Shown here: positions 8,731-64,000 of the stretch, one piece after another | Layout of the letters: each line of letters opens with the position of its first letter | How positions within the stretch are numbered: the stretch's first letter is position 1 | From: Azolla caroliniana | Lineage: Eukaryota; Plantae; Polypodiophyta | Assembly (NCBI GenBank): GCA_043228905.1 | Contig: JBHGNT010000011.1 | Location: 5,704,001 to 5,768,000 of the forward strand | Direction of reading: 5' to 3' | Length of the DNA: 64,000 bases | The notes under the pieces: model-generated | Database searches by the model: none | Told to the model about the DNA's origin: nothing | The model's input: the letters and a program-made list of their open reading frames with translations, nothing else | Program-made: the position numbers and the translations under genes

Positions 8731-9029
8731 GATTGAGGAAGAAACTAGAAAATGGTCTTGAGGTTTCTTTTCCTCGTGTGGATAGGGGTGGTGAGAAGTG
8801 TAGGGACATTCTTGGAAATAAAGGGGAAGTGAAGGGGGGGCATTTTGGAGATTTTCCAATACCATATGGAGATCCATCATTACCCCAATATCATAAAAGC
8901 CACCTTAATCAGATAATATGAACAATATGGCCTCAATGGCTATAGCTATGGCTATGGCATCTTCCTTGGTTTCATAGAGTATGAGATTTCCATTTCCTGC
9001 AATGACCCATCTTTGATCTAATTACAAAG

Positions 9030-11723
9030 ATGCCATTGGTGAGCATACTAGAGGACCCCTTTTGTTGCTCCTCAGAGCTACCTTCCATCGACCATTCTCT
9101 GCACCTTCTACGCAAGATCAAGCAAAACAGAGACTTAAATCATGCCAATAGAGTCATATTTGAGCTCACAAGTCGTGGTTTAGATCTACATATATCTATC
9201 AGAGACTATATAGTCCCTATGCTCGTAGAATGTGGTTCCTCTGCCTCATTTACTCATCAAGTATTCAATCGTTTGCCTTGTGCTAATGAATACACATGGA
9301 CCTCATTAATACAAGTCTATATTGATAATGGGTTCTTTGAATTTGCCCTAGATTTGTTCACTTTGATGCAAAGTGATGGTATTGAACCCACTAGTTATAC
9401 CCTGGTAGCACTTTTGAAGGCTTGTTTGTGCCTCAAAGATCTCGAGAAAGGAAGAGAAATCCATTCGTATGTTTTAAACAATGGGTTTCATAAGAATGCT
9501 TATGTTGGAAGCACTCTCATTGATTTGTATTCGAAATGTGGTTGTATGGATGAGGCTAGAGAAACATTTGAACTATTGCCGAATATGAACGATGAAGAAA
9601 TTGTGGTTCGGAATGCATTGATGGCTGGCTATGCTGAGAATGGATATGCCAAAGAAGCTCTTGAATGCTTGGATGAAATGAAGCAACATGGTGTTGTACC
9701 AGATGTGGTCACTCTTGTTTGTGGTCTAAAAGCCTGTGGAGTTATTGGAGAGATCGAGAAAGGTCAGATTTTAGAATCCGAGGTTATCATAAGGGGTTTT
9801 GATAGAGATATTATTGTCGGTAATAGTTTGATTGGTATGTATGTGAATTGCGGTCTAATTTCTGAGGCACTAAAGGTATTTCAACTTCTGTCGGTTTGTA
9901 ATGTTGTCTCTTGGAACACATTGATTTCACACTATGCTGAGTTTGGGCCATGGATAGAAGCATTGAATCACTTTGAATCCATGCAAAAAGAAAAGATATT
10001 GCCTGATTTTATCACCTTTTGTTGTATTATTAAGGCTTGCACTAATCTAAGAGATTTACAGAAGGGTCAAATTCTACACATGGAGATTATGATGAAAGGA
10101 TTTGAACAAAAAGTTAATGTTGGCAATTCGTTGACTAACATGTATGTAAATTGTGGGTGTTTTTTGGAGGCTTGGCGTGTTGTTTATGGATTACGAGATC
10201 GGGGAGTGGTTACATGGAACACTTTGATCACATCTTATGCTGAAAATGGGCTTGGTGAGGAAGCATTGAGATGTTTTGTACTCATGCAGGCTGAAAATAT
10301 CCTACCAAATCAGATCACGTTGGTTTCAGTATTTAAGGCTTGTGGTAGCATTGGAGCTATTCAGAAAGGCTATGAATTACATATGGAGATGGAGCAGCAA
10401 AAGTCTGAAATGAATGTTTCCATTGGGAATGCTCTAATAGGTATGTATGCTGAATGTGGTTTCGTATTAAAAGCCGAAGAAATCTTTAATACTATGCCTT
10501 TTCGGAATGTCGCTTCATGGATTGCACTTATAGCAGGTTATACTCAAAATGGATTCAATCAAAGTGCTCTTGAAAGCTTTGATAATATGAATTCACATGG
10601 TGTTTCTCCAACAAATGCCACCTTTTCGTCCATATTGAAAGCTTGTGGTAAGAGAGGAGTGACATGCAAGGGTAGAGAAATTCACAACATGATCATCAAG
10701 AGAGGCCTAGAAAATGATGTTTCGGTTGGGAATAGTTTGATCGATATGTATGTGAATATGGGTTTACTTGATGAGGCCCAATTTGTTTTTGATAACTTGC
10801 TAGTGAGAGATGTTGTGGCTTGGAGCTCAATGATAAGAGGATGTGGTACAAATCATGAGGTCAATTTGGCGATATATTTATTTGAGGCTATGCAAAGAGA
10901 TGGTGTGAAACCAAATGCTATTACATTCACGTGCCTTTTGACTGCATGTTGCCATGGTAGACTCATCACTAAGGGCCGAGATTACTTCAGAATGATGAGA
11001 GAAGAACATCACATCTTGCCGACAATAGAACACTATACTTGTATGGTTGATCTCCTTGCGAGGTCGGGGAACCTTCACGAGGCAGAGAGATTCATTGAGA
11101 TGTTGAACATTTCATCTCAAAGTATATGGGCAGCCTTGTTAAATAGCTGTAGAACTTATGTAGATCCAGAGCTTGGCATACGATGCTTTAGTGAGCTTGT
11201 TGGGGTTCATCCAGAAGATGCGACATGGTATGTGCTTATGTCATCTATACATGTGAGTGCTGGGAGGTGTGAGGATGCCTTTAAGATAGAGGAGGTAAGA
11301 AGACATGCTGGAGCAAAGAAGAAGAATGCTAGAGCTTCCATAGAAGTTAATGGACAGATACATACATTTACTGTGGGAGAAGCACAATGTGATCGAGTTT
11401 CCGAAATGCTGAAGGACATGAACATCCACATCCAAGAAGAAAGACATTTTGTGGATATAGATTCGGTTTCAAAGCTCATTCATGATGAGAGTAAGGAAAC
11501 TTCCTTGTGTGATCATGCCGAGAAAGTAGCTATTGCATTTGGGCTTCTTAATACTCCACAAGGCCAGACTTTACGTGTGACGAAAAACTTGAAGATGTGC
11601 AATGACTGTCATAGTGCTAGCAAGATCATATCTCAGCACAAGAAACGGGAAATCATTGTTCGAGATGAATCATGCATTCATCGTTTCAAGGATGGTATAT
11701 GCTCTTGCGGTGATACATTTTGA
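9030..11723 (+). CDS. PLS-class PPR-DYW protein with DYW:KP-like deaminase domain (PPR-2; candidate U-to-C RNA editing factor)
   Basis: 897-aa uninterrupted ORF: PLS array, E1/E2, then [11 protein letters not shown], zinc motif HAEK..CNDCH, and terminus [14 protein letters not shown]. Confidence 0.93.
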
Positions 11724-16888: not shown

Positions 16889-17505
16889 TGTTATCCGTGG
16901 GACAATAAGACTAAGGTATGAAAAGGATCGTAAAATTAAAGTGTGAAAGGGGACAAGTAGATCACGATAAAAGAAGTCGAGCACTAGTAGTTGAGGGGAA
17001 AAGTAACCGAAATACAAGCAACCATAAACATAGGCCGAGGATCAAGAGAGAGTAGTTGGGACGAGCCGATGAGGGAGAGAGCTATATAAATCGTGAAGTG
17101 GCAAAAACAGGGAGAGGCCATAAGGGAATACAGAAGATATATCTAATTCGAGCCATAGTGACTAACTTGATTAGAAATATAGATATGTATTGAGAGAGAG
17201 AACAATACAGATTTACTCGGTTTGTACTACCAATGTATTATCTATTTAATAATCAATTACGTATAGTTTTTGGGTCCATCTCTATGCCTCTCTCGTTTCC
17301 ATTTCCATTTCCATTTCCAATTGTGCTATTTGTTCTATAAGTCATGAGTGCGGATCAGTCGTAGCTGATTCTCGAAGTGTCCAACTAGAAGGGTGTAACG
17401 TTCGGCCTCTACTCGGCCCTACCTTAGTCTCTTACGTGACCACGATTCCTTGACCCGATTACTCAAGAGGAGTAATCGAAGGTGTTCCCCAACAAAAGAG
17501 TAACA
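16889..17505 (+). repeat. G 5' LTR (617 bp)
   Basis: TGTTA..TAACA ends, TATA box (CTATATAAA at ~17082), followed by a PBS-like site. Confidence 0.82.
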
Positions 17506-17510
17506 CAATT

Positions 17511-17523
17511 TGGCACTCCTGGT
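17511..17523 (+). promoter_or_regulatory. G primer-binding site, tRNA-Arg-like (TGGCACTCCTGGT)
   Basis: Begins TGG 5 nt after the LTR; resembles the complement of the plant tRNA-Arg(UCU) 3' end (TGGCAC(A/G)CCC..), recalled from memory. Confidence 0.6.
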
Positions 17524-17576: not shown

Positions 17577-20500
17577 ATGACGCCCAACTCCAGCACACAT
17601 TCTTGGCTACCATCTCGATGAGTCGAACCAGCCGAAGGCATCTTCGACTCCCCGCTCACGCAACAATTGCCACCACAGTAATCACTGTCACACCAATCAC
17701 CATTGCCAACACTCGACGCTCAGTCAACCGTGGGCTCCGACCCCGTTTCACCTCGTAATTCCCCCGAAGTCAACCAAGCTGAAGACAACCCCTTTCTGGC
17801 GTTACCCGAATATCCAGATTTCGACACCATGTCGTATTCGTATCAACGTTACACGGATGGCCACAATGCAGAATCACAGATCAGATCCTTCTTGTCGACA
17901 TGACAAGCCAACCATTTGACGTAACGTCTAATCGCTGTCGCGAAAATACGACAAGGATACGCGAACTTGAGGCAGGACCCTGGGGCCTCCTACCAGAGAA
18001 TATCAAATTCGTGTGTTTATGTACTAAGAATTAACCGAAATAAGAAAGATTGACAAATTTCATTAACAAATAGAAAGAAAGATTACAGTTAATCCCAAGA
18101 TTGGGATTACAAAAAGTTTAGCTAATGGAGATTGCTAGAATAATAGATTAGAAGAATTTGAGATATGGATTCAATAGAAAATTAGGGGTTTTTTTTTTGC
18201 TTTGATAAGAGATTATGGTTTATGAGTTGAATAGCTTCCGTATGGAAAATTTTGAATTATGAGTGATAGATCCCCTAAGAAAATTCAGATTCTTCCTTTT
18301 TCTCTCTCACCCATACACTTGCATGAAGGAACTTCAGTTTGCATCTCCCATCCCTTTGCATGCATTCCACATGGCGTTTTTACTTTCGTTGCATGATCGT
18401 TCCCCTTTTTCTTTTCATGCCTTCCATATGATCTTTATTTTATGCATGCCCTCCAACTTTAGTTGCATGTGTACACATGGCCTTTACTTTAGTCTCTTTT
18501 ACTTTACTTGCCACATGATCCTATCATCTGTCCGTCTCGATGGTCGCCCATCCAATCTATCCGTCTCGAATCACCACCCATCCAATCCATCCGGTCCACG
18601 TCCAACCTCATCCGGTCGCTGATTCCGGTTTGGTTTTCGACCGGTTCCAATTTGGTTTTCAGCTTACCAGCTGGTTCCGAATTGATTTCCGACCGTTTCC
18701 GGTTCCATTTTATTGTCAGTCGGTTTTTGGGAACTTGGCTACATTTATCCATCTAAACAAAGTGGCCAAAGTGCTCTTAGCACAAATGAAAATGAGGGAT
18801 CTCAATGTGCTTATATAGCAAGGGCCTTAAGTTTCCTATCTATGTGGGATAAATCATAGTTCTATTTTCCCTATTTTCCCTATCTTCTCAAACTTCATGT
18901 TCTCATAACTTGATATGTAGTAAAATGCATTTTGAAGCTCTTAAGTACATCCATCTTTCTATAACAAGCTACTTAATCTAATCTAAAATAATTATTTCAT
19001 TATTTTTTTACACAGTGCGTGAGGATTCACACGACACCGCTACCTAGGCTGACTCATCGAAAATCGCAGAGTTCACATTATCTCTCGATGGACCTGCAAC
19101 ACGCTGGTATTCCTTGCACGACCTAGGGGAATTCGCGAGGTTTGAAGATGTTCGCAATTGATTCCTTGAACTTTCCCACCGAGAAATACCCAAGTAAGAA
19201 CTGCTCTGTCAGTCTATGTAATCGCATAAGAGCCAAATGAAACAGTCTCCTAGTTCACAATCCACTTCCAAGATCTTTATTGCCAAATCGTTCAAGATGT
19301 GTCTGTGAATCATCTTAAGGACACATTCCTCACAGAGCTACAAGAGCCTCTTCGCACGACTTTAGCCTTGACCGACGTATCACAACAAACGATTGAGCAA
19401 GTGGTCAGTCACATCCTCTCCTTGGACAGATCTCAAAATAATACCTCTTTTTCTATGAGTTCTCTCCAAAGCGCCTTGCCGACACACGAAGAAACCTAGT
19501 TTCGGCAGGCGATCCAATGCACGACATGCTTGAATTTCCGGCCACTCGGCCATTGATTGCGCTCTCCGACCACACTACCCGATTTGCCACTCCTAAGGGC
19601 ACACGATAGAGCAATGTGAATATAATATGCTCAACTGCACAACCGCCGCCCCGGTACGCCAAACCGAACCTCGCCACAATCGTCCTCGACAAGATGATTG
19701 TAATCGTCAGCCACCTCGATTTTGGGAAGTCGAGCGACCCAGGTACGAAGATCGGTATCGACCCAAGGGGGATTGCTATCGTCCAGACAATCGGTCTCGA
19801 TTCGAGGAGGATCGCTATTGGCCTGCCAAAGATCGCCACCGGCCAAAGGAGGACTACTATCGGCCAGTGGATGACTAGTATCATTACAACTACGATCATG
19901 ACAATGATTATGAGACACGATACCGTTCCAACTGTAGGTAGGATCGGTGACACCCCCAAAACAATCGCAGACATCACCAACTGGGGAATAATCGAAGACC
20001 CCCAAATAATCGACACCGGGATCCGCCGTGTCCAGATCATTGTCAACCGTCTCCCCACATCGAGTCTCGGGATGATCACCATCAAATGCAGTGATACGAC
20101 ACGCCACCCCGAGAAGAACCCCTAGACCTCTGCAATTCGAACATGGGGAATCAAGCAACTTTGCTCCGATCACATGCTTCAATTGCAATCAACCAGGGCA
20201 TTATGCGACTCAGTGTTCGGTCAATGATTGCGGCAAGGGCCCCGTAGTAAATATCATCACGACCGAAGTCCAATAGGTAACAACAAGAAGCAAGGCACAA
20301 CACACGCAATGGCACGTCTAGGATGAAGTCTGTCAAGCCTCAAAAGAATGGATTGAGAAAGCTAATAACGCTAATGTCGACTACATGAATACTGAAATGA
20401 AAGACACCACTATCGGCTCGTCAACTTCCTCAAAACCTACCAATTCTCTTGACGAAGATCCAACCTGGCAAGCACTTACCATCTGCCAGATATCAATGCC

Positions 20501-22518
20501 CTTAAGTAAGCTCCTTCATTTGCTTCCACGATTCAAGGACACAGTGGTATCCTTGACCACCGAAAAAGATCGGACGACTGTGCCGAGTCAAGTATAGGTT
20601 CCCCACTAATGGACTCCCAAAACCTTGCTTTGAAACTCATTATCAAAGGGCGTGATATACACGGTTGCATTATTAGCATTATTAGCGAAGCCACTTGCCG
20701 AGCTCTCAGCATTAACCAATGGGAACCGTGCCCATTTGGGTTATGAATGGCGGATACATGTTCCATCCAGCTGATGGGCTTAATCTGACACCTCAATTTC
20801 ATTCTTGGAGGCCATACACTTACGATCTCGGTAGTGGTCTTAAGGCTGGATTTTCCCGGCGTCTACTTGATATTGCTCGGACGTCCTTGATTACGCACGA
20901 CGAACATTAAGCAACACTGGTAGCGCAATATGATCTCCTTCCGACGCGGGAAAACAAAGGTATGTGTCATCATGGACGAACGAATACCCACCCCAAAGGA
21001 CACCACTCCTCTCTTTGTTGAAGGTGTCCACATGCTCGACGGCCTAGCAGACGAGGAAGTCGATAGCTTTTTGGAAGATCACCCAAAGATTGTACCGCTA
21101 TTCGACATCGACATCGTCGAAGCCGTCAGTCCTTATGTCTCCGAGCTGGTAGAAGGGGAATGAGATATCGGCCGAGAACCTGATCCGAAATCGGTTGAGG
21201 AGTTACACTAGGCACGCGAAGCGCTCGAACGAGAATTAGCCATATCACAATGCGTAAAGGCATCAACACTAGAGGAAATCAACCTCGACACTACCACAAA
21301 TCCACAACTGCTCAAAATAACAAAGGAACTCGCCCATGACGAACGATCGACATTGGTAGGCCTGCTCATAGAGTATCACGATGTTTTTGTGTGGTCATAT
21401 AGTGACATGAAAGGATTAGATCCTCGATACTACCAACACCAAATCCATCTGAAGCAAGATGCCCGACTCGTGTAGCAACGCTGTTACAGAATGAATCCCA
21501 ATTATGTGGCAAAAGTCAAAGAGGAAATCGACAAGCTTCTCCATGTGGGGTTCATTCGACCCGTCAAGCATGTCACGTGATTAAGTCCAATCGTGGTCGC
21601 CCCAAAGAAAAACTGCAAAATAAGGATATGTGTCGATTATCGGAAGATGAACGTTAAACCCATCACCGACGCATTTCCTCTCCCTTTTACGGATGGTGTG
21701 TTAGATGTCGTCATGAGACACGAACAATATAGCTTTCTGTATGGGTTCGGTGGTTACAATCAGATCTGCCTGCACATTGACAACCAAGAAAAGAAAGCAT
21801 TCGTAACAGAATGTCGTGTTTTCATGGTGGTTGTGATGATGTTCGGATTGAAGATGGTGCCGACGACCTTCTAGCAGATCATCACCGAAAATTTCGGCGA
21901 CTATATTCCGACATTCATGCAAGTCTTCCTCAATAATTTCTTTGTGTAGGGACGACAAGTCGAGCACCTCAACCAGTTACGTCTCTGTCTCGATCATTTT
22001 CGGCAAGCTCGGCTCAACCTAAACCCCACGAAATGCACGTTTAATGTCTCTAGTGGCGCCCTATTTGGGCATATCGTCAGCCGAGAGGGGATTGCTATGG
22101 AACCCAATAAACTAAAACCCATCTTGGCCGCTCCGGCCCCTACCACTGCGAAGGCCTTGAGCCGATTTGGCCGATTCGTTGGCATAATCGAATGTTGCGT
22201 TATTTGGCCAAATTCGCGACGTCATTACATGCGGCGGTTCAATTGCCCTTCCAATGGACGGGAATAGAAGACAACGCTTACAAGGCTCTTAAGGTTATGC
22301 TATCTCAGGCACCGGTTGTGCAATCCCTCGATTGGTCTCAACCATTTCACGTTTTCGTTGACGCTTCTGACGTGGCTATTGGGAGTGCCCTAATGCAAAT
22401 GACTCCTCCGAACTGGTACTAGCAAGTTTACTATGCCAATCGACGGCTCTCGACGGCCAAAAAGAACTATTCGACCACAGAGCGCGAAGCACTTGGCATG
22501 ATATACAACATAACAAAG
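17577..22518 (+). pseudogene. G gag-protease-RT-RNase H (degenerate; interrupted by insert 17936-19036)
   Basis: CCHC knuckles (~19518, ~20174), RT motifs PKKNCKIRICVDYRKMN, DAFPLPF, GYNQI, MMFGL, and RNase H VFVDASDVAIG..NYSTTEREALGM. Start approximate. Confidence 0.88.
17936..19036. mobile_element. Solo-LTR-like insert (1101 bp) in G gag
   Basis: TGTCG..CGACA ends; apparent 4-bp TSD TCGC/CCGC; AT-rich and non-coding; gag resumes afterwards. Confidence 0.75.
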
Positions 22519-49972: not shown

Positions 49973-50240
49973 ATGGGTGCTTCAACAACAAAATTCATTT
50001 ACGAAAACTTATGGTGTTGTTTCGTCTGCCCGATTGAGCTCGTCAACGACCAAGGGGGACATTTCCTCAACAAAATTATTTGGGAACTCACGACACACTA
50101 TGTGGTGGTCCATAAGAAAAGCACACTACATTATCCGCAAGCCAATGGCCTGGCCGAGTCCACAAATAAAACGTTGCAGACCATCCTAAAGAAAATTGTA
50201 AACGAAAATCGCATCAACTGGGATGATAAGCTGCATAGCG
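49973..50240 (+). pseudogene. G integrase core fragment
   Basis: FIYENLW..PIELVNDQGGHF..HYPQANGLAESTNKTL..WDDKL, truncated on both sides. Confidence 0.88.
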
Positions 50241-50479
50241 TCGTGAACCCGAATGCCAACCGAAAAGGTGTGGACATCTTAAATCCATATATTGGCCATA
50301 CACCACCTAATCCATTAATATGCCACCCAAGATAAGCTGAAATGGAGGTTCACTGGGGCACATCGCCCAAATTACGGTAACTACCCCACCTACTCGAAAA
50401 AAGGAACCCACTAACTTAAGTATTTAAGAAGCATGCACACAACGCAAGAAAAGTAAGTACAAACCATTTCCTGACGCAT

Positions 50480-51854
50480 TGTCGTAGTGTGAATCACACA
50501 CTACGTGAAATATGTAAAATACAATATCCGATTTAAAGTACGTATAATAAATAAAATAAAATATTAATAAAATATTTATTACATGCATAGGGCAAGATTT
50601 GAACCCTATACCTCCACATAAAAAACCCCAACTTTACAAGACATCTTGCATGTCAAAGAATGTATAAAGGAATCATTTACAACTCATATCTTACAAGACA
50701 TCTTGCATGTCAAAGGAAAACAATGTGTAGATGAAACAACATAAAAAAAACAACTCCAAAACACCACATAATGTACTTCCATTAGTTAAGAATGTATAAA
50801 GGAATCATTTACAACTCATATCTTACAAGACATCTTGCATGTCAAAGGAAAACAATGTGTAGATGAAACAACATAAAAAAAACAACTCCAAAACACCACA
50901 TCATTCTATGTGTATAGCATTACTCGAACACATATTCTCCACGTGAGCCTCATACAAAACAAAATTCAGCATAGATGTCCTCCATTTGCTCCTCATGGCA
51001 ACACCCATCTAGATGTTAGGAACACTTGGAGGGAACAGCCACCGCGGTGGTTGATAATTCCACTTCACTTTACCATCCATTATCTGCAGCATCGGCGAAC
51101 CACTCCATTTCCGAAGGAATCGAGCTCTAGCTTCTTCACTTGCATCAGATGGCCCTTGAAGACTTTCAAACTCACCTCGCAACGTAGAAATAAGATTAAA
51201 CCATTGTACTAACTTATCCTTAGTGTTCTAAATATAGATTTAATACCTATAACACCTTTATTTACGCCTACCTTTATTAAAAAGGTAAGTCATGCATTTT
51301 TAGAGTGCGTGAATACTTTATTTATAAGAAAAATGTAAACCAATAAAATATTACTCGTGCACATCTAGCGAGCATGAGCACTATATTTAGGAAATAAAAG
51401 CATAGTGTAAAAAGCAACTCATGCACATTTAGTGTGCATGAACACTTTAGAATAAGCATAGAGTCTATCTATAGAAAAAGCATGGATTGTTAAGACTCTC
51501 TCATCACTATATAAGGATGAGGGAGCACAATGTAATAGGTGTGTGAAATATTTGGAAATTGGATATATTTCTAAAAGACACCAATTAATATATGTGTGGG
51601 ATTCACGAAATAATCTATACTTGTGGGATTCACAAGTTCTTTTTAATCTCTTTCTTTCAATCTAAATACATATTCTTATCTAAATATTGATTAATCGAAT
51701 ACAATACACTCATGGGATTCACGAGATTTCTATCTCTCTTTCTAATAATCTATCCATAACTATAAACTTGTCTCAAATTCTTCCTCTTACTAGTCCAAAA
51801 CCCCAACGGTTCCCACCCGACTCACACAACGATCTGGTGCCGAAAGGCACGACA
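50480..51854. mobile_element. Solo-LTR-like insert (1375 bp) with an internal 132-bp-period duplication (50656-50901)
   Basis: TGTCGT..ACGACA ends; apparent 4-bp TSD GCAT/GCGT; left end resembles the reverse complement of the right end of insert 17936-19036. Confidence 0.7.
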
Positions 51855-53456
51855 GCGTGGCCTTAAAACGTCATTATGGCAGGAGAGATTCTGAATCTAG
51901 GGCACAAGGCCACTTCTCGAGAACCAAGGCCCATACATAAATCAGGGCACCACAGGTGCAACACTCACATAGGAACACACGCCCATAACCCTCAAACTAT
52001 CTCACCTTCTGCGTAGAAGCTCTCTTGCTCTCTCGCGCCCTACACCGAAGTTGCCTCGCTCTCTCGCTCCCAACATAGAAACCATCACTCTCTTCCTTAC
52101 TCAACACCAACCAAGCCAAACATGTTGCTCGAAGTTTCCATGCAGCTCTGCAGTTGGCTGAACAGGCATAGCCTGGGCGGTTATCTAAAGGTTGTCGATG
52201 CACCTCCCCACCCCGACGCGCAAGAAATCGGACGTTGGGTGCATCCCAACACCATCACCAAAAACTAGATCCGGTCAACGCTGGGTCTAAAGCACGATGG
52301 ACAACATGACATCGAGGCTCTGCCTCGAAACGTCGTCGAGGCTCATTTCAAGGAGTACTCGGTTTTCGTGAAGGAATATCACACGCAAGGAGGGCCTAAC
52401 GAGTTCTTTGGAGATTTGTCCTGCTTTCTCTTGGAGTCCGGCTACATGCATGCTAACGTGTATAGCATGCAAAAAAAGAAGGCAGGTACCATCATCACCG
52501 CTCTTACAAGGGTGGTGTAATCAAATGGGGGATCCTCGCCGGGGAAGGAGTCTGCGCTGGTCTATCGGCTTTCTAGACAGGGAAAAGGTTCTTGCCTACT
52601 CTAGCACATTACCTATCTATGCTCTAGCCTCCCCATTCCGCACCCGCTCCCCATCCAACCCTCACCCTCCCCGCCCCACCCACTCAGACAACGCAGCAAC
52701 AGGCTTTACACCTTGCCTAGGACAAATGGCAGGATGATGTGCATGCACAAACTCTGGCCTCGCCACTGCCGACCCAAGCCACCAAGGCCCAGGAACCAGT
52801 GGACGATATCACCATCCGGGGGCATGAAAAGCCCAAGACATATGCCCCAGTGGAGAAGCCGAAGCCTAAATAAACAAGCCGACAACAAGACCTTTGGGAG
52901 GAGACCTAGACAACCTTGGTCGAAAACAAGCAACCACCCTTGGTTAATTGTCCTAAACGGCTCGGAGAGGAGTTGAAGGATGCAAAGAAGGCGTCCCCAC
53001 AACTGAGCCCCGCAAAGAAACTTCGTTGCTTGCATAGACACAGCGAGGAACAAGCCAAGGGGGACTCCTTCGCTGCAAATCTACAATTGGTTGTCATCCC
53101 TGAGAAGACTGAAACTGTCATCCAGGACAAGGCTCTATCCTTAACAGGGAATATAGAGCAAGGTCAAGCTTCCTGCATCTCGGAGGAAGTATGACCTTCA
53201 AGGACCTGCCCGTCGAAGCATATGAGCTCAGTGTGATTTTACGGCACGACGCGGCATACGAGTTGATAGACTTTCTCGCTCGTCTCTAGGTTGCCACCGC
53301 AACACGCATGGCCGCGGAACATGCCGAGAAACAGATGGTCCAACGAGCTGTCGCAAGAGAAGCCGAGTCAGATGACAAGTAGGCGCTACAAAAAATCGGC
53401 CGGAAATGGCAAACCAAGAGTCGTCGCCTCCTCATCAAGCTACCCGAACTTAACAC

Positions 53457-56400
53457 TGTAAGAAAAGTTCAGAACATAATGGGTTGGATTGACAACAGAG
53501 AATGAGAGAGAGTTTTCGAACAATGTAGAACAAGGTAAGATATTATATTAAGACAGGTGTATTACAATGTAAGAACCTTCAGAAAACTCTAGATGTAGTA
53601 TCACACACTTTTCTAAACAATACTTCATACATATATATATACAAAGAAGTAACAACTAGTCGTTAATTCTTTGTAACTGTTGTTTTGTCTTTTTCTTATT
53701 GTCTTTTGTAACTCATATTTTGACTTTATCCTCATAACTCATGTTTTATCATTTGTGGTGTAAACAAGTAATCTTAACACCCCCCGGTAGTTGTGACACC
53801 ACCAAATCATCTATTTGGATGAATACTTAATCCAATATGGTGGCAGCAACTCCAATGTTTTGCGTTGGGTACTGGCTTGGTAAGAAAATCAGCCCACATA
53901 GTTTGTGTTGAAGTATGTCCAATTGAGAGGTTAGATTCTTCAAGAAGTTCTGAGATGAAGTGATGTCGTCCGCGGATATGCATGTTTTGCTCTGTGATCT
54001 TGGGGTCCTTAGTGATTTTGATGCAGGATTGGTTGTCACACCATAACTTGAATTCAGAAATTTTGAGGATGGCAAGTTCATCAATGATGGACTTCAACCA
54101 TAATCCTTCCTTAGTAGTGAGAGTAGCTGCTATATATTCTACTTCAATGGAAGAGAGGGTGACATTAGCTTGTTTCTTTGTTCGCCATGAAATGGCACCA
54201 CCTGCAAATAGGAATACATAGCCAGAGGTGGATTGAGAGGTATCCCTGTCCCCCCCCCCCCCCCCCCCCCCCCAATCTGCATCCGTCCAACCATGTAGTG
54301 GTGTTGATAGCCAGCCTTGGATATTTGAATGTTGGGCTTTAGAGTATGATGTGTAAGTAAGTGTCATATCCCTTGTGTACTTCAGATACCGTAATACTCT
54401 TTTAAGTGCTTTCTAATGGTTAACTCCTGGATTCTCAATGAATCTTGATAGGTATCCAGTGGCAAAAGATAAGTCGGGTCGAGTACAGCTAGCGAGGTAT
54501 CGAATGCTCCCCAACACTTGGCGATACGGGATATTCTTCATAAAGTAAGTTTCTTCAGTTGTATGTGGTGAATCTTCATATGATAATTTGCATGGTACTG
54601 TGAGGGGAGTGGAGTTTGGAGAACACTCAAACATATCAAACTTGGTTAGTATATTATCAACAAAATTTTCTTGTGATAGGGAGAGTGTACCTAGAGTTCG
54701 ATTCCTTTTTACATGAATCCCAAGAAAATGTTCTAGTGGCCCAAGATGTTTCATTGGGAATTGTTGTCATAACTCTGCAATAAATTCCATTACCAAGTCT
54801 TCCAATGTCCCAGCAATAGGTAAATCATCCACATAGACTCCCAAGAGTAAGAATTCTGTTTTTGTTTCCCTTATATATATATTAGGTTCCGATTGAAGTT
54901 GTTGAAATTTGATTGATAAGAGGAACGTATGAAACTTGGCATACCATTGTCTCGGAGATTGTTTTAGGCCATATAAAGGTTTGTTAAGTTTACACACATA
55001 ATTAGGGTCTATATTACTATCTAACATTTGAGGTTGTTCTATATATATATCTTCTTCTAAATCACCATGTAAAAACGTTGTTTCAACATCAACATGATGA
55101 AGTTCAAGATTTAAATATGCCGTAATGGCAAGAATCAATCAAAGTGCAGTGATCTTTAGAGTGGGTGAAAAAGTTTCATGGTAGTCCACACCTGGTATTT
55201 GGGAGAATCCTCGAGCTACTAATCTCGCTTTGAACCTCATGGGAGTACCTAGGGCATCATATTTCTTTGTAAAAAGCCACTTACAAGTGATGACATTGGA
55301 GTGACAAGGCCGCGGTACTAATGTCCATGTGTGATTCTTTTGGAGTGCTGAGAATTCAGATTTAATTGCCGCAACCCAATTGTCTTTTTCTTTACTTTTT
55401 AATGCTTGCTTGAAGGTGAGAATTGGAGTTGTGTCGCAGTTGTCTCCTTCGATGATGGCTGCAAAGATGGCTATGTGGGACTCCGTCTCTGTTACGAAGT
55501 GACATGTCAACTTTTCAAGCACCTCGTCCTTAGTTGCATCATAGATATCACGAAGTAACCTTACCTTAGTCTTTTTAGCCCTAATTTCTTTGTCTTTTAA
55601 GGTTGTTTTGGAGAGGTTGCAGGTTTTTAGGCGACCGAGATCCATATTCTCAGATCTGGAGCTTTGTTTTCTTGCAGTTATGGAGGATGCACAGGGTTGA
55701 ATGTGGTCGCCACTCGTATGCTCAGGTTCAAGGCTTCGAGTAATATATTGGGCAGTGGATTGATTATTGCTTTCGAGGCTTCGGTCATACACTTGTTCAC
55801 CTTTGGGGCTTTGAGCATCAGATTGGCAGACAAATTGACCACCAATTTTGAGATTTTGAGGATACTCTGAGGTGTAGGGTTTTAGATGACCTGAACTTGT
55901 ATGTTCAGATTCACAATTTCGACATTCGGATGCTGAGGAAGAGTTGTTGGGTTGTTGGCGGTGCACTAGCACATCCTCAGGTTCGAGACTTCAAGTGGCT
56001 GATTTGGTGATCATAGGCTCGGTGGCGGTGTTCACAGTAGAGATTCCCAACCCCTCATCTTGAGTGGTTAAGATCTGAGAATGAGGTAATTGGTTGAGTT
56101 TCTCTCCTCTATTTCCTGTTGCATTGTTGTGTAGTTCGGCATTGATGATGTTCATCCCATCATTTTCAGATTCCATTGTTGTTGCTTGAGGAAGTCTTAA
56201 CTTTGTGATTTCCTTGGTAAGGTGTTCACTCCCGGTTTCTTTCATTACATATGATGACCTAGAAAAAAGACTTTTCTCATCAAACTCCGCAGAACAACTA
56301 AAAATTATTTTACCTGTATCGGGAAGGTAAATTCTGTATGCTTTTACTCCATATGGCTCCCCATATCCAATAAGTTTTCCTTTGAGGCATCGATCCTCAA

Positions 56401-58976
56401 GTTTTGTCCTCTTGGCAAGTTCTATGTATGCAAATGCAGTTGCTCCAAATACTCAAAGATGTGATATCTCAGGTGGGTACCCATACCACATGGTGTATGG
56501 CACTTGTCCTTCTATACCTTGGTGAGGAGTTCTATTTTGTAGGTAACAAGCTGTGGCGACTGCTTCTTCCCAGAATCTCGAGGCCATTCCACTCGTCTTC
56601 AGCATACTCCTAGCAACATTTAATAAGGTGTGATTCTTTCTCTCAGCTATCCCATTTTGTTGAGGTGTGTAGACAGTTGACTTTTGATGAAATATAACAT
56701 TTTTTGTGTTAAAGGCTTCCCATTCTTGTGAAACAAACTCCCCACCATTGTCACTTCTTATTACTTTAACTTTAAGTTGTGTTTGATTTTCAACAAAGCT
56801 CTTATATGCACAAAATGCTTTGAATGCATTTCCCTTTTGTTTAAGAAAGTTAACCATTGTAAATCGCGAAGTGTTATCAATAAATGTTATAAAGTACCTT
56901 GCTCCGGAGAGTGAGTTGGGAGTTATCGATCCACATACATCCATGTGAACAAGTTGGAGTAGTTCCTTTGTCTTTTAGTTACTTAGTGGGAATGATTTTT
57001 GAGCCGTTTTCCCATACATGCATCCTTCGCAAATATCAATAGATTTAAAGATTGTGGAAGGTAAACCTCTTACTAGGTTCTGATTTTGACACAACTTGAG
57101 TGTTGGTGTATGTAGAGGACCGAACTGGCAATGCCATAGATAGGTGGGGGACACATTGTCTACTCCTCCTTGATGTACTTCAGCAGCTAATGCTTCTCCT
57201 AGATTTGCCTTGACAGGATATAGTTGCCCTTGTTTTGGACATACAATTTTTATCTCATGTTGATCATCTTGGATGTATGGGGTAGCTTGTTGTTTGCTGA
57301 ATTTGACTGTCATTCCTTTTGCAGTAGCTTGTCCCACAGATAATAGGTGTTTTGCAATTCCAGGTACAAAGTATATATCTGAAATTTGTACAACATGATT
57401 ACTAATGAGTCTTAATTTGATATTACCTTTCCCAATTGCCACTTTTTGACCTTTGTCTCCGAAGGTGACCTTCAATGGTATTGGGAGCTCTTGATAGTTG
57501 TCCAACCAGTCTTTTCGATATGTTAGATGGTGAGTAGCCCCGGTATCCAAGAACCAGGTGTTATCATCTTCATTTTCTTCAAATGTGTTTGCATTATATG
57601 CTTGAATGTACTCTTCTTCATCAGGTTCTACATTTTGTTCAGGTGCTTCTTCAAAAGAGTATTCTGGATTTCTATCATCTTCTTGTTGGATAACCACATT
57701 ATGTGCCTGGGGTCGGTTGGAGTTCTTCTCTGCTTGCTTAAGGTGACATACTCGATCAATATGTCCTTCCTTCTTGCAATATCTACAGATGATTCTAAAG
57801 CTTCCATTTTGTCGTGAGTTGTTCCCATAGTATTTTTGTGCTTCACTCTTGATGTATGTTTTATTATTATTAGATTCATTATTTCTTACTTTTTCAGGTC
57901 TGTTCCTCTATTGGTTTGCTGGATGACCCCTTTGGAATCGATTGATGGAGACTGCCATTGCGATTGGTTGAGCATTATTCTTCATTTGTCATCGAATGTC
58001 TTCATGGCGGATGTTAGTAAGTAGATCAGACAATGTTGTCGTGCTACTATGCATAGTGATGAATGTTCCCCAAGATTCGGGGAGTTTGCTTAGCACTAAT
58101 CCAATCTTGATGTCTTCTGAGATGCAGTTGCCGGCAGTAGTTGCATCATCCATGGTTGCCTCCCAAGTTGATAAGAAGGTAGGAACATCTTCTTCTTCCT
58201 GTAAAACATACATATTAAATAGGGTAGCTAAGGTGTGGAGTTTAGTTGTACCATCTTGAGGTTCGTATAGTTCCTTCAGTTTCGCCCACATTGCAGCTGC
58301 AAATGTGAGTTTTCGAATTATTTCTGATTGCTTTTCATCTACATTTAACATTATCTCTAGTTTAGCTCTTTTATCCAGCTTTCGCCACTCATGCCATTCA
58401 TTTGACTCTCGTTTTACAGGTTCTGGACTAGCGCCAGTTGTGATGTCGAGGAGCTCCTCAACATCAAGTAGCAACTCCATTCGAGTCTTCCAGGTTTTGT
58501 AGTTTTTCTCCGTTAATTTGTCCAAGGTATATTTTCTGCTTGAGCTTGCCATAGTGATAGTACTGAGATTTGTTTATTTCAAAACAATCTGTGGTGAGTT
58601 TTGTTGGTTATAGGGGAGTATGAGATTCAGATCGTGCAACTAAGCTCTGACACCATGTAAGAAAAGTTTAGAACATAATGGGTTGGACTGACAACAGAGA
58701 ACAAGAGAGAGTTTTCGAACAATGTAGAACAAGGTAAGATATTATATTAAGACAGGTGTATTACAATGTAAGAACCTATAGAAAACTCTAGATGTAGTAT
58801 CACACACTTTTCTAAACAATACTTCATACATATATATACAAAGAAGTAACAACTAGCCGTTACTTCTTTGGAACTGTTGTTTTGTCTTTTTCTTATTGTC
58901 TTTTGTAACTCATATTTTGTCTTTATCCTCATAACTCATGCTTTATCATTTGTGGTGTAAACAGGTAATCTTAACA
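53457..58976 (-). mobile_element. Element F: AT-rich Ty1/copia inserted in the G extra ORF
   Basis: LTRs 53457-53779 and 58656-58976, TSD AACAC, PBS TGGTGTCAGAGC; gag from 58552, FLDTGAT protease, INT, RT YVDD, RNase H ending at 53807; several stops. Confidence 0.95.
54250..54273 (-). repeat. C24/G24 homopolymer in F RNase H
   Basis: Translates in frame as DADW-GGGGGGG-DRD. Confidence 0.9.
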
Positions 58977-60789
58977 AACACAGCCCTGGTCAAAGCTTAC
59001 TGGGAATTGGGCAAGATGACCTGTGCAAGCAAGGATATGGCTCTCAGTAGCAAACAGGTGCGGAAACATGCCAAGACAGCAACAGAGTTGTGGTAGGCTT
59101 CGGAAAGCTTAATAGCCGAGCTTGAACAACGGCTCCAAGGAATCGGGAAAAATGACCCTCCCGCTCTCCTACCTCCCAATCCTAGCTAGGAGGATGCATT
59201 CACACAGACCAAAGAAACTCCAGAATCGGTTCCCGCCACCGAACACCACACAGCCCCTCCCGACACAACAACGGCCCCGCCGTCGAACTATGAAGAAGAG
59301 TTGGCATCTCAGAAGGCGATCACCGAGAAGGCCAAAGAGAGATACCAAGAGGCAAAGGAGGAGCTCGACCACCTCCGCGAGTAGGCAAAAAACCGAGAGA
59401 TTGAACTCTAGCAACTGCTTGATGCATGGATGGTTGAGCATAGGCAAGTCCTCCAAGTCCTGGAAGCAAAAGCAACGGCAACTCTTCAGGCCGCTAACAC
59501 GGAAGCAACCACCAAGATCCATGCGATGGAAGCATAGGGCACGCTTGCTGCTCGTGTTGCAAACAAGGCATCCGTGGGCAAAATTCATCACATCGAGGAG
59601 GGGTATCAACGGGCTTCCGCAATAACAAACGACCAACTCCTGATTCTCCAAAACGAGCACACAAAACTCCAACAACACTTTAGTAGGAAACATCAAATGT
59701 TAGGAGAATTGGAGGAAGAAAAATAAACATTGTTTGAGTCCCTCCACAAGCTACAAACCTCTGCGCAACAAGACCAGGAACGAGATTGGGAACGGTACCA
59801 GCAAGAGCTGGAAGAGGAAAAGAATCAGATCCTCCAACTGTATGAACAACACGTGGAGCTAATGGATCAAAATAAGGCCAACCTAAGCACCTCGTACCAA
59901 ATCCAGAAAGCCCAGCTCGAACTTGATGCCGCAATGGCCACAGAGAAAAGGAACATCTTACACGTCAAGTACGAAATGGACAAAACGTGGATCAAGGCAT
60001 TGATTGCAAAGCATTGGAAGAAACTCAATTAAAAGGTTGAAGAGGCACTAGGTCAAGCGTGGAATGAGTGGTTACAAGTTTTCCGAGCAGATGCTGAGAA
60101 CCGAAAAAAGGAGGGCCACAAATTTCACAAAATGAACAAGAATAGCATTCAGGTTCTCTGCGAAGACCTCACCGAGGAGTTTCAAGCCTTGGCGCGAACA
60201 CACACCACGGCAATCGGAACCCTTCTTGAGGAATTCAACGATGATCAACTGTTGCTCACCATTGAAACGAAAGTATATGGATGCGAGCGCCTCCGAGCCG
60301 AGAAGGGAGAACTGACCTCGGTACAAGCATCAACAGAAGTGTAGCCCGCAAGTGCAACACAAGAGCCAAAAGTAGAAGATGTGATGTGCGTGAACCAGGA
60401 GATTGAACCAGTGGTCAAACACGACAGGGAGCCAAATCAGGAGGAGGTGGTTCCAGAAGCTATGTCAAAGGTTGCAGACCAACGACTAGGTTTATCGGCC
60501 GAGCTCCAGCCAGAGGAGCCAAAGCAGGAGGAGGCAACTCAACCAGACAGAGCCCAAGAGGCCGTTCCGGAATTGGCAAACCAAGGGCTAGATTTTTCGG
60601 CCACGCTCAAACCGGACGAGTTAGAACAGGAGGAGGGCCTTCGTGCATTTTTGGAAGAAAAATAGTGTATCGTGGAATATTTTTTCGATTCTTCATTTCA
60701 GATGGCGATAATTTCAAGTTTTCAATGTCGATTTCTTTGATTGATTTCTGGGTTCAACATGCAAGGCACTATCCCATGGGCGTGCCAGG

Positions 60790-60861
60790 TGTTATCCATG
60801 GGATAATAAAACTAAGGTGTGAAAAGGATTGTAAAAGTAAAGTGTGAAACGAGACAAGTAG
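60790..60861 (+). repeat. Start of G 3' LTR, interrupted by element H
   Basis: TGTTATCCATGGGATAATAAAACTAAGG... aligns with 16889-16960. Confidence 0.85.
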
Positions 60862-62500
60862 TGTTGAGCGGCAAGCTCAACTGGAGCCGGATCGGCTGGA
60901 TAAGCCTGAGTTGGCAAGCGAGACGGATCGGTAAGCCGGTGAGCAACCGAGCCAGCAAGCAACACGGTTAGCCAGATCCAATCGGTAACCGGAAGCCTAG
61001 TATTAGTTTAGACTACTAGGCAATTATAGTCTTGTAGTAAGTGTCAGATGCTCGTGTGAGCATTGAAGTACGCGGTACTTTTGTCAGTCCCACAAGGACT
61101 TGTATAAATAGTGCTACTGAGCACAATTGTATGTACAGAGTGTTTTTATCGTTTTTGAATCTAACTTTTATGTTCTGCTCTCTCTGTCTCTCCCGTGGAC
61201 TCGGTGTATTCTCTGTTTTCTAACGCTTCCGCAAGTAATCGTTTACATGGTATCAGAGCGCGAGGGTTGAGAACCTCTGCAACCCTAACAGCTCGTAAGA
61301 ACAGCAGATAGAGAAGTGATGGATAGAGGAATGGCTAGCTCACTCCCTGTGGAGAAACTCAACAGATCCAACTACACATCTTGGTCGTACAAGATGCACC
61401 AGTACCTGCTTGGGCATGACTACTGGAGTTTCGTCGAAGGAGCCAACGAAACAACACATGATACGACACATAAGGATTTCCCAGTGTGGGAACAATCGGC
61501 AAGCAGAGTGATGTACTGCTCGCGTCCAGTGTCGGAGACCAGCTGCTGAGCCACATCCGAGACGCCAAGACGCCGAAGGAGGCTTGGGGAAACCTGAAGA
61601 AGGTTTTCGCTGCGACACTACAGCCCGGAAGCTGCAACTCCGACAGGAGTTGAGCAATGTTCGACAGAAGGACATGTCAGTGGTGGATTACACGGCCCGG
61701 ATCAAAGAGATCTGTGACTCGTTTGCCTCTATCAACGTTACCATAGAGGAAGATGAGATGGTACAGGTCCGTCTTGGGGGCCTAGCATCTAAGTTCAGAG
61801 CGTTCCGAACGGCGGTATGTACAAGGGAGAATACGCCGTCATTTTTCGACTTACAGTCGATGCTCCTTGTAGAGGAGAACCACGTCGGTGCGTCAACTAG
61901 CGCACCCATTGACAGCCGGATGTTGTACACGGAAGCGGATCGGTCCCGTGGGCGTGGTGGACGAGGCGGGTCGGCACGCAATGGAGGCGGCCGGCAAGAC
62001 CAGGAACAAAGGCACAGAGAACGTGCCGACAGCAGTTCCGGATCATCCGGGAGCAGGGGGAGTCATGGCAGCACCGGAAGATGGCAAGAGAAGACTGCAA
62101 CGGAATGTTGGTACTGTGGCAAAAAGGGCCACAGAGAAAGAGAGTGCTTGAGAAAACGCGCCGATTCGGACAAATCTGGATCCGGCAAGGCCGGCAAGGA
62201 TGGCCAGCAAAGCTCGCACTACACAAAGGGATCGGGAGGATCCAAGAACGGTAATGGGCCAGCCTTGGTGATGAAGCACGAGGCGAACTCGATGAAGAAG
62301 ACCACTTCCAAATCGGAGGAAGTGTGGTATGTTGATTCTCGTGCGTCGAACCACATGACGAGCCACAAAGAGTGGTTCTCCTTCTTGGAGAAACCGGATG
62401 TCAGGAACAGTACTAAGATAGAGAAGGAATTAGTACTAAACGAAGGATTAGTACTATGAGAGGTGTAGAACTTCTTCAAGAGAAGGAAGAAGTGAGCGAG

Positions 62501-62969: not shown

Positions 62970-64000
62970 TGTCACGGATCATAAGCTCAAGAGATAAGCA
63001 AAAAGATAACCAAATGGACAAGAAAGAAGATAGTATTACAGGAAAGACTCCATAACTGGTGTTGTTCACCTTGAATTCCTTCAAGGTGAACTCCTCTATT
63101 TATACTACATGGCATGCATACTTGTTGCACGCATGTGAATCTACAATAGAGCATGTAGGTATGCATGCATGTGCCAAGTGTAAATACTACAAGGGAGCAA
63201 CTATGCACATGATGCTAGCAAAATAATAAGGACCAATTACATACATAACTATGTACTAGATATCTTGGTTAACTCATAATACTAGATTATAACATGGTCG
63301 TGTCAAGAGTTTGAATCTTGACATTATCCCCCCTCCTACGCCGCCTTCCCAAATCGGCCGCTGGTTTGTGGGGATATCAGTGATGAAAATCTTGGACGAC
63401 CTCTAGGGCATTTTGTAAATTTGTCGATGGTTCCCACGTGGCCTCAGACATGGGGTAACCCCTCCATAGGACGAGGTATTGCAAGTGTCGACGGTGCCAA
63501 CGCGACTCAAGGATTTGGTCGACCTCGTATTCCTCCCCTGTCGTCAATTGCACAGGTGGTGGTGGTGGGGCCTGACGTCCTGGGAGTTGTGAAGCATAAT
63601 GGGGTTCGAGGAGGGAGACATGAAAAACATCGTGAATCCAGAAGTGGGATGGAAGGGCGAGCCGGAAGGCGACGGGATTGATGCACTCGATGATACGGAA
63701 TGGTCCCAACTTCTTGTAATCAAGTTTCGCACATGGACGAGTAGTAGAGATGTGTCGACGTAACCACCAGACCATGTCTCCAAGGACAAAGTGTGGAGTG
63801 GAAGATCGATGGCGATCAGCCTGCTTCTTGTATTGTTCACTAGCAAGACTAAGCTCCAAGGATAAATCATGATGTAGTTCTTCCAAAATGTGGGCGCGAT
63901 CCTCCGCCGAAGGGTTCACGGAAGTGGTAGGAAGGGAAATGTTGAAGCGAGGATGTAAACCATAGTTGGCAAAGTAGGGAGTGACGCCAGTCGATGCATG
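62970..64000 (-). mobile_element. Element J: chromovirus (Ty3/gypsy) 3' end with LTR, PPT, and integrase C-terminus with chromodomain
   Basis: LTR 62970-63323 (TGTCA..TGACA), purine-rich PPT on the minus strand immediately inside the LTR, ORF 63377-63919 with GPF motif (KLDYKKLGPF) and chromodomain EYEVDQIL..YLVLWRGY..ATWEP. Confidence 0.94.

Follow-up and report, generated by a model that had tools for sequence, protein, structure and literature searches.

A Ty3/gypsy lineage with a copy of the tRNA-Arg 3' half in place of the polypurine tract, and possible priming of its plus strand by host tRNA-Arg

Retroviruses and LTR retrotransposons are generally taken to prime plus-strand synthesis from a polypurine tract (PPT), and programs that find LTR elements search for such a tract. 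PPT priming is described as the rule in excerpts of the relevant literature (PMC6317226, PMC5371799, PMC11963269, PMC6850104, PMC5006619, PMC7175516), in which the variants presented concern the minus strand only, namely half tRNAs, the self-priming of Tf1 and the pyrimidine tract of Skipper. A PPT before the 3' LTR is ascribed there to "most" Ty3/gypsy elements rather than to all of them (PMC6317226).

Yeast Ty3, as excerpted from PMC5371799, has the order gag-PR-RT-RH-INT, direct LTRs, a short tRNA site after the 5' LTR and a primer end just upstream of U3, all of which recur in the element described here (element G). However, a 12-nt purine RNA primes the plus strand of Ty3, whereas element G has a copy of a tRNA 3' half and no purine tract. 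Ty1 and Ty3 also possess bipartite primer-binding sites (PBSs), in which two segments pair with the acceptor stem and T arm of one tRNA and are separated in Ty1 by a small loop (same excerpts of PMC5371799). The same two segments are present in element G, but those of Ty1 and Ty3 lie on RNA and serve the minus strand, whereas here a bipartite site would exist only on minus-strand cDNA, at the PPT position. Sequences complementary to the element's own PBS are likewise a feature of Tf1/sushi, Tcn1 and TAR (excerpts of PMC7175516 and PMC6317226); in Tf1 the complement is the first 11 nt of the transcript, whereas in element G it is a tRNA copy situated where the internal region ends on its 3' side. 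Among plant elements, Athila, Tat/Ogre/Retand, Phygy and Selgy taken as a group resemble element G in lacking a chromodomain and in having an extra ORF after pol, and the 5' site of element G is putatively of the tRNA-Arg type, as in Ogre, yet the excerpts describe no inverted second site in plant non-chromoviruses (PMC6317226). An exact-phrase search of open-access text also failed to return any account of a tRNA site standing inverted where the PPT should be. Tf1, for its part, still uses a PPT. Element G is an element of a known kind, for which the inferred priming route would be new.

Element G and the site before its 3' LTR

Element G is a non-chromovirus Ty3/gypsy element with the gene order gag-PR-RT-RH-INT on one strand. 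Its parts in the window (the whole 64-kb stretch of Azolla caroliniana DNA that was analysed) are as follows.

16889 to 17505, + strand: 5' LTR, with ends TGTTA...TAACA and a TATA-like box near 17083
17511 to 17520, + strand: putative 5' primer-binding site of 10 nt, decayed in the window
17811 to 22518, + strand: remains of the gag, protease, RT and RNase H genes, interrupted by stops and shifts of frame
49976 to 50245, + strand: integrase core fragment of the same clade as the RT, 74-76% identical to P0125
52131 to 60666, + strand: extra sense ORF after pol, broken, and split by a copia element at 53457-58976
60748 to 60757, + strand: copy of tRNA positions 49-58 (5' strand of the T-stem, and T-loop), with two differences from the tRNA form
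60758 to 60770, + strand: insert of 13 nt that separates tRNA positions 58 and 59 and contains a 4-bp hairpin
60771 to 60787, + strand: second part of the tRNA copy, which covers positions 59-76, lacks nt 66 and has CCA as its last letters
60788 to 60789, + strand: spacer that separates CCA from the LTR (of this 2-nt length in 75 of the 100 readable matches)
60790 to 60861, + strand: start of the 3' LTR, truncated by a copia insertion

The initial annotation had placed gag-pol and the LTR TATA box on the plus strand, and gag, protease, RT, RNase H, the integrase piece and the extra ORF all do lie on that strand, collinear with intact relatives. The left and right halves of the element are joined across nested copia elements and a deletion, which has removed some 270 pol codons from the stretch that links RNase H to integrase; both halves share the same closest proteins, and they may derive from two copies of one family. 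The left flank of the element reads GGCC, to be set beside the 4-bp target duplication of Phygy, which has the form NCGN. The extra ORF of the window is similar to an open ORF of 915 aa in the relative L132 (30-2774, motif orientation), which is likewise a sense ORF after pol, appears coiled-coil-like by eye, and matched no Pfam family at cut-off.

The LTRs are direct, with TG...CA ends, and whole LTRs are present in the metagenome loci described below. Of the 3' LTR, whose end lies outside the window, only 72 nt (60790-60861) are present, which are 89% identical to the start of the LTR at 16889-17505; a separate minus-strand element as owner of the 60790 LTR, a possibility that had been raised at the outset, is not borne out. 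A copia LTR from about 60863 cuts it, the copia TGGTATCAGAGC site standing at 61248. The 3' end of the window's 5' LTR matches the LTR ends of L184, L128 and L191, and is followed by a PBS: after a 5-nt spacer, TGGCACTCCT begins at 17511 and is identical at 8 of 10 positions to the mirror of the 3' tail. In relatives the intact site is TGGCACGCCC, 10 nt in length and the mirror of the tail, and L191, a member of the window's own family, has TGGCACGCCC with the same spacer and leader as the window.

At the other end, the + strand at 60772-60789 reads TCCCATGGGCGTGCCA-GG, and TGTTATCC begins directly afterwards at 60790. The sequence, the coordinates and the absence of a purine run are as first annotated: in the 25 nt preceding 60790 there are at most 6 purines per 10 nt, compared with 7-9 per 10 nt at four copia LTR edges in the window (two more LTR-edge probes, with uncertain boundaries, gave 6 and 9). 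The tract usual for Ty3/gypsy elements is therefore lacking before the 3' LTR of element G. Allowing up to one mismatch, the tail 10-mer has a single match in the 64 kb (at 60778), against 1.69 expected by chance. Since the 10-mer alone is within chance expectation, the case rests on its position and on its recurrence in relatives.

A 10-bp hairpin can form between the module described below and the LTR start (60769-60806), in some families only. As a general mechanism this hairpin was dropped, LTR starts being different in many families.

A split copy of the tRNA-Arg 3' half in many families

The sequence at 60772-60789 proves to be the 3' part of a 40-nt module (60748-60787) that begins 24 nt further upstream, copies tRNA-Arg positions 49-76 and ends with CCA 2 nt before the 3' LTR. 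The copy is split between positions 58 and 59 by the 13-nt, hairpin-bearing insert and lacks nt 66, and its last 10 nt (60778-60787) mirror the 5' site. The copy in the window has decayed at several positions. That of L212 consists, in order, of GTGGGTTCGA, an insert of 13 nt containing a 4-bp hairpin, GTCCCAC, GGGCGTGCCA, GG and then the LTR. When the outer halves were searched with a free gap between them, 15 of 15 natural loci were tRNA-Arg genes, of prokaryotes or a phage and not of the host. In these genes ARAGORN identifies the halves as T arm, acceptor strand on the 3' side, discriminator and CCA. The assignment to tRNA-Arg, the type named in the initial annotation, thus rests on prokaryote and phage genes rather than on those of the host; the 3' end of plant tRNA-Arg is similar. 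There is no tRNA gene in the 64-kb window and no tRNA-Arg gene in the metagenome loci, and an Rfam search with the module of L164 gave no tRNA match and two chance hits, as expected for a split half.

Metagenome contigs were scanned with a 22-nt pattern that excludes the LTR, so that loci were chosen by motif and PPT-bearing relatives would escape detection. The scan returned 104 matches in 102 loci, and the motif is accordingly not peculiar to this copy; the accessions listed lie close together, however, and the 102 loci therefore probably represent few host species rather than independent taxa. TGTT follows within 12 nt of the module in 91 of 100 readable matches (four were too short), compared with 12 of 264 control windows. 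The absence of a PPT in these loci is partly fixed by the search pattern, which also set positions 60-64 and 68-76, so that compensated variants could not appear there. Positions 49-58, in contrast, were free in the search, and with one sequence taken from each of 46 clusters they match the tRNA at a mean of 8.2 of 10 positions, against 4.3 in a control 25 nt upstream. The T-loop (54-57) is kept in 34-39 of the 46 clusters and the stem (49-53) in 36-43, position 58 being the least kept (28 of 46).

Four public DNA runs from three samples and three studies, the best of which may be the source of the window, supplied contigs for alignment to 60480-60960, where depth peaks at 60752-60802, far above the flanks; diverged contigs (records 8, 14, 15, 24 and 30, with 14-18 other letters) bridge the module and the LTR start, and loose ends occur on both sides of the shared block. 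Together, the depth peak, the diverged bridging contigs and the loose ends indicate that many families share this block and not its surroundings. Runs that include DNA of the window itself show a common block that extends from position 49 to within the start of the LTR, with loose ends at 281-284 and 328/333 of L212.

The orientation of the module relative to the genes is largely the same across relatives. Upstream sequence of 500 nt is available in 68 loci, of which 19 have a homologue of the extra ORF there on the + strand and one on the - strand, and TATA-like boxes occur on the + strand in 48 of 52 LTRs and on the - strand in 15. In L169, RT-RNase H lies on the + strand upstream of the module, and its RT groups with that of the window at 99% SH-aLRT in a quick tree. 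The polarity of the extra ORF, RT and TATA boxes places the site at the PPT position of sense elements, and the two inverted PBS-like sites that had been seen to bracket the internal region are, family-wide, a tRNA 3'-end copy and its mirror site after the 5' LTR. The anatomy of the module, its register with tRNA-Arg genes, its conservation and its orientation are observations, and the replacement of the PPT by a copy of the tRNA-Arg 3' half is real, conserved and lineage-wide.

Several structural variants were encountered among the loci. An internal deletion in L169 joins RT-RNase H to the end of the extra ORF, the module and the LTR. Short derivatives (L127, L131, L133, L134, L136, L142, L143, L155, L160, L161, L167, L173 and L177) have an internal region of 0.6-2.7 kb and no pol, with both sites and a strong LTR-end hairpin retained in all 13. 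The insert in L122, L219, L149, L186 and L221 resembles a tRNA end fused to its own complement, and in L122 and L219 it is a 12-nt palindrome, a hint that the insert originated by snap-back copying. Viral contigs contained no relative of the polyprotein, and 120 loci that a loose pattern returned from them were taken as chance.

The tail and the 5' site are exact 10-nt complements in 13 of the 14 contigs that contain both ends. Across these 14 contigs, PBS nt 10 and module nt 67 are C-G in eight, T-A in five and T-G in one (the rearranged L152), a covariation with a Fisher p of 0.003, uncorrected for kinship. It probably reflects one or two events, given that there are two related subfamilies per side, that LTRs within a contig are 77-100% alike and that the pairs are family-level. 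In L134 (2494) and L167 (2258, both in motif orientation) the 5' site is TGGCGACCAC, which is unlike the tail but has the same leader, and the internal region continues to the 3' end shared with the others, though the phase is uncertain; this suggests a primer switch. Tried as a possible tRNA-Arg end, the L134 site matched four phage tRNA-Asp genes, and it fits a tRNA end of some kind. In L152 an LTR start in inverted orientation directly adjoins the 5' site and leader at about 800-900 (motif orientation), and a second, oppositely oriented module stands at 2553-2574; such a junction is expected of a template switch, or of a fold-back, at the inverted 10-mers. Such 10-mers may explain how inverted-LTR elements originate from ordinary ones.

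Candidate primers of the plus strand

We consider it very probable that a whole clade of plant LTR retrotransposons has lost the PPT and starts its second strand from a tRNA 3' end, furnished either by host tRNA-Arg or by a mimic. In the former case a second tRNA would be docked on a two-part site of the minus-strand cDNA; in the latter the primer would be encoded by the element and could serve both ends. Our main reading, to which we assign a probability of about 0.5 on the basis of sequence, is that a Ty3/gypsy lineage without a PPT carries a copy of tRNA-Arg positions 49-76 in its place and that host tRNA-Arg primes the plus strand. Of the two mechanisms first proposed for the locus, a second tRNA-Arg on minus-strand cDNA is favoured, while pairing of the RNA's own CCA-ending segment with its PBS is supported by one covarying pair.

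The route, which we infer throughout, would begin with packaging of the + strand RNA, as the polarity of the genes and TATA boxes implies, and tRNA-Arg would prime the minus strand in the conventional manner at the 10-nt 5' site. Strand transfer and clearing by RNase H would leave a minus strand that exposes the two-part site, to which a second tRNA would pair through nt 76-59 (with nt 66 bulged) and nt 57-49, the hairpin looping out at 58. Extension of the second tRNA by RT would cross the spacer and enter U3, just as from a primer at a PPT, and both tRNAs would presumably be removed by RNase H.

A number of features of the module fit a second tRNA. Without the insert, its outer halves match tRNA-Arg genes only (the 15 of 15 prokaryote or phage genes above), and the break at 58/59 falls at the usual end of an 18-nt PBS; methylated A58 stops RT, and 58 is the position least kept, the T-loop being kept about as well as the stem. 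Changes lean towards those that G:T pairing tolerates on the minus strand: at CpG 65/67, CA (G-to-A) is found 33 times and TG (C-to-T) nine times (p 3e-4; by cluster 16 vs 6, p 0.05), with an even background of CpG decay (505 vs 507). A change of G51 to A, which recurs (11 of 96 matches) in the family that includes L132 and L176 (with open extra ORFs of 900 aa), breaks the T-stem in cis but not the tRNA:DNA helix. There is also precedent in the two-part tRNA sites of Ty1 and Ty3, which pair with acceptor stem and T arm (excerpts of PMC5371799). Other observations are less easily accommodated. The missing nt 66 would leave a bulge in the helix, and there is no lean at CpG 56/57 by cluster (9 vs 8). 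A tRNA paired to DNA should be a substrate of RNase H, to which the primer would thus be exposed, and its protection by the bulge or junction is a guess. At positions 49-57, 35 of 67 cluster-level changes are not wobble-compatible (32 are), and the covariation of nt 10 and 67 would be explained only with a second tRNA-Arg variant carrying A67.

If the primer were instead made by the element, neither a second tRNA nor a primer that has to escape RNase H would be needed: the module in the element's RNA would fold as a T-arm hairpin, resist RNase H in place of the PPT and be cut after CCA, and the plus strand would be primed through the 10-nt tail. The geometry would be PPT-like, with the 2-nt spacer of 75 of 100 matches, the loss of nt 66 would set the tail directly on the stem, and a long GUGGG/CCCAC hairpin forms in the + RNA of three of six folded modules. 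Nevertheless, the other three fold otherwise, the G51-to-A change disrupts the stem in a family that has open ORFs, and positions 49-51 are eroded in several families in which the loop is kept. Moreover, C65 to T, harmless for the stem, is the rarer change (12 vs 36 of 104), and such a fragment always matches its own cDNA, so that nothing would tie its tail to a tRNA or to the 5' site; we regard such a primer as possible but rather unlikely. The exact complementarity of tail and 5' site in 13 of 14 contigs, and the covariation of nt 10 and 67, speak for pairing of the CCA tail with the 5' site of the same or a co-packaged RNA, a cut after CCA then allowing it to prime the minus strand and the same cut later yielding the plus-strand primer. 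That the complementarity ends at the start of the T-stem would then explain the 10-nt length and the missing nt 66 together, and Tf1 does make its primer by cutting an RNA:RNA duplex (excerpts of PMC7175516). The covariation is probably one or two events, however, the 5' site of L134 and L167 is unlike the tail (phase unsure), the cut would sever one genome from its U3-R end, and the kept T-loop would be unexplained. This route seems to us doubtful on present evidence, although it, the element-made primer and the second tRNA are not mutually exclusive, and end-to-end pairing could precede tRNA loading.

Further alternatives would assign the module to another strand or function. A role in packaging, dimerisation or strand transfer, with an unremarkable RNase H-resistant fragment as primer, or an optional module in a lineage of which some members retain a PPT, would be compatible with a search by motif in which PPT-bearing relatives are invisible, and with the palindromic insert of some families (L122, L219). 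We nonetheless think it improbable, as the short distance from CCA to the LTR is constant among many LTRs that are unrelated, which puts CCA where a primer end must lie, and the module is kept in short non-autonomous derivatives. Read on the minus strand, the module is a strong, canonical-looking PBS 2 nt from the LTR edge, and the other end is purine-rich on that strand in the short derivatives; it might accordingly be the ordinary two-part PBS of a minus-strand genome, with antisense genes or as part of a separate minus-strand element. Against this, gag, pol and the extra ORF point toward the module on the + strand in the window and in L169, the extra ORF and TATA-like boxes have the polarity counted above (19 loci to one, and 48 of 52 LTRs to 15), and the other end is also tRNA-type, with no purine tract in the autonomous family, so that the puzzle would remain and the probability of this explanation is very low. 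We give still less credence to a fold-back of DNA, in which the minus-strand end (the complement of the 5' site) would anneal to the module and prime without an RNA primer. The two 10-mers are indeed inverted repeats and L152 has the predicted junction, but this is a single contig of low coverage, whose junction would equally follow from a template switch; inverted LTRs would result unless a DNA nick freed the plus strand, whereas LTRs are direct in the window and in those contigs that contain two copies, and the T-arm part of the module would not be needed.

Should a tRNA end indeed prime the plus strand, this successful, high-copy lineage would demonstrate that a single type of primer can serve RT for both strands, and it would have to be asked how RNA paired to DNA avoids RNase H as a primer when there is no purine tract. 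The module would then also offer a short and sharply defined substrate for tests of primer selection.

Affinities of element G and its genomic surroundings

Element G was compared with several named lineages. An extra archaeal-type RNase H, present in the control P0235, is absent from P0121, P0123 and P0125 of the same clade, and identity with Tat/Ogre/Retand was set aside in view of these close relatives, the RH-INT stretch of the window itself being deleted. The integrases of P0123 and P0125 have no chromodomain, the mark of chromoviruses. The tRNA-Asp/Asn type of PBS found in Athila (excerpt of PMC6317226, supplementary file 5) is not matched, nor are the tRNA-Trp and tRNA-Ala PBSs that excerpted sources give for Phygy and Selgy, from which element G is also distinguished by its extra ORF. 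A tRNA-Arg-type PBS is reported for Ogre (89%), TatIII (64%) and part of Retand (30%) in the same supplementary file (PMC6317226); the tRNA-Arg ends that matched element G were those of prokaryotes or a phage. In a quick tree without labelled lineage references, the RT of the window stands apart from angiosperm and pine matches and forms a separate clade, its nearest named kin being liverwort and fern proteins. Self-priming of the Tf1 type relies on a PBS complement inside the LTR, at the 5' end of the transcript, and none was found there: with up to one mismatch, the tail 10-mer has no match in the window besides 60778, and in 22 loci scanned under relaxed conditions all its occurrences belong to modules.

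At least seven copia elements are nested within element G (window 22519-58976, and 60863 onward), several of them with LTR pairs 96-100% alike, and the deletion lies near 49972. AT-rich insertions are present at about 17970-19040 (in gag, unrelated) and 50246-52100 (after integrase), the latter containing a 117-nt direct repeat at 50656-50904. On the minus strand, about 63300-64000 resembles by eye a chromodomain-bearing integrase end, and by the same judgement belongs to another gypsy type nested in copia. That the host is likely a fern was judged from two PPR genes outside the element, at 464-2671 and 9006-11723, the second with a DYW deaminase domain: their closest named matches by identity are mostly fern proteins (49-52%).
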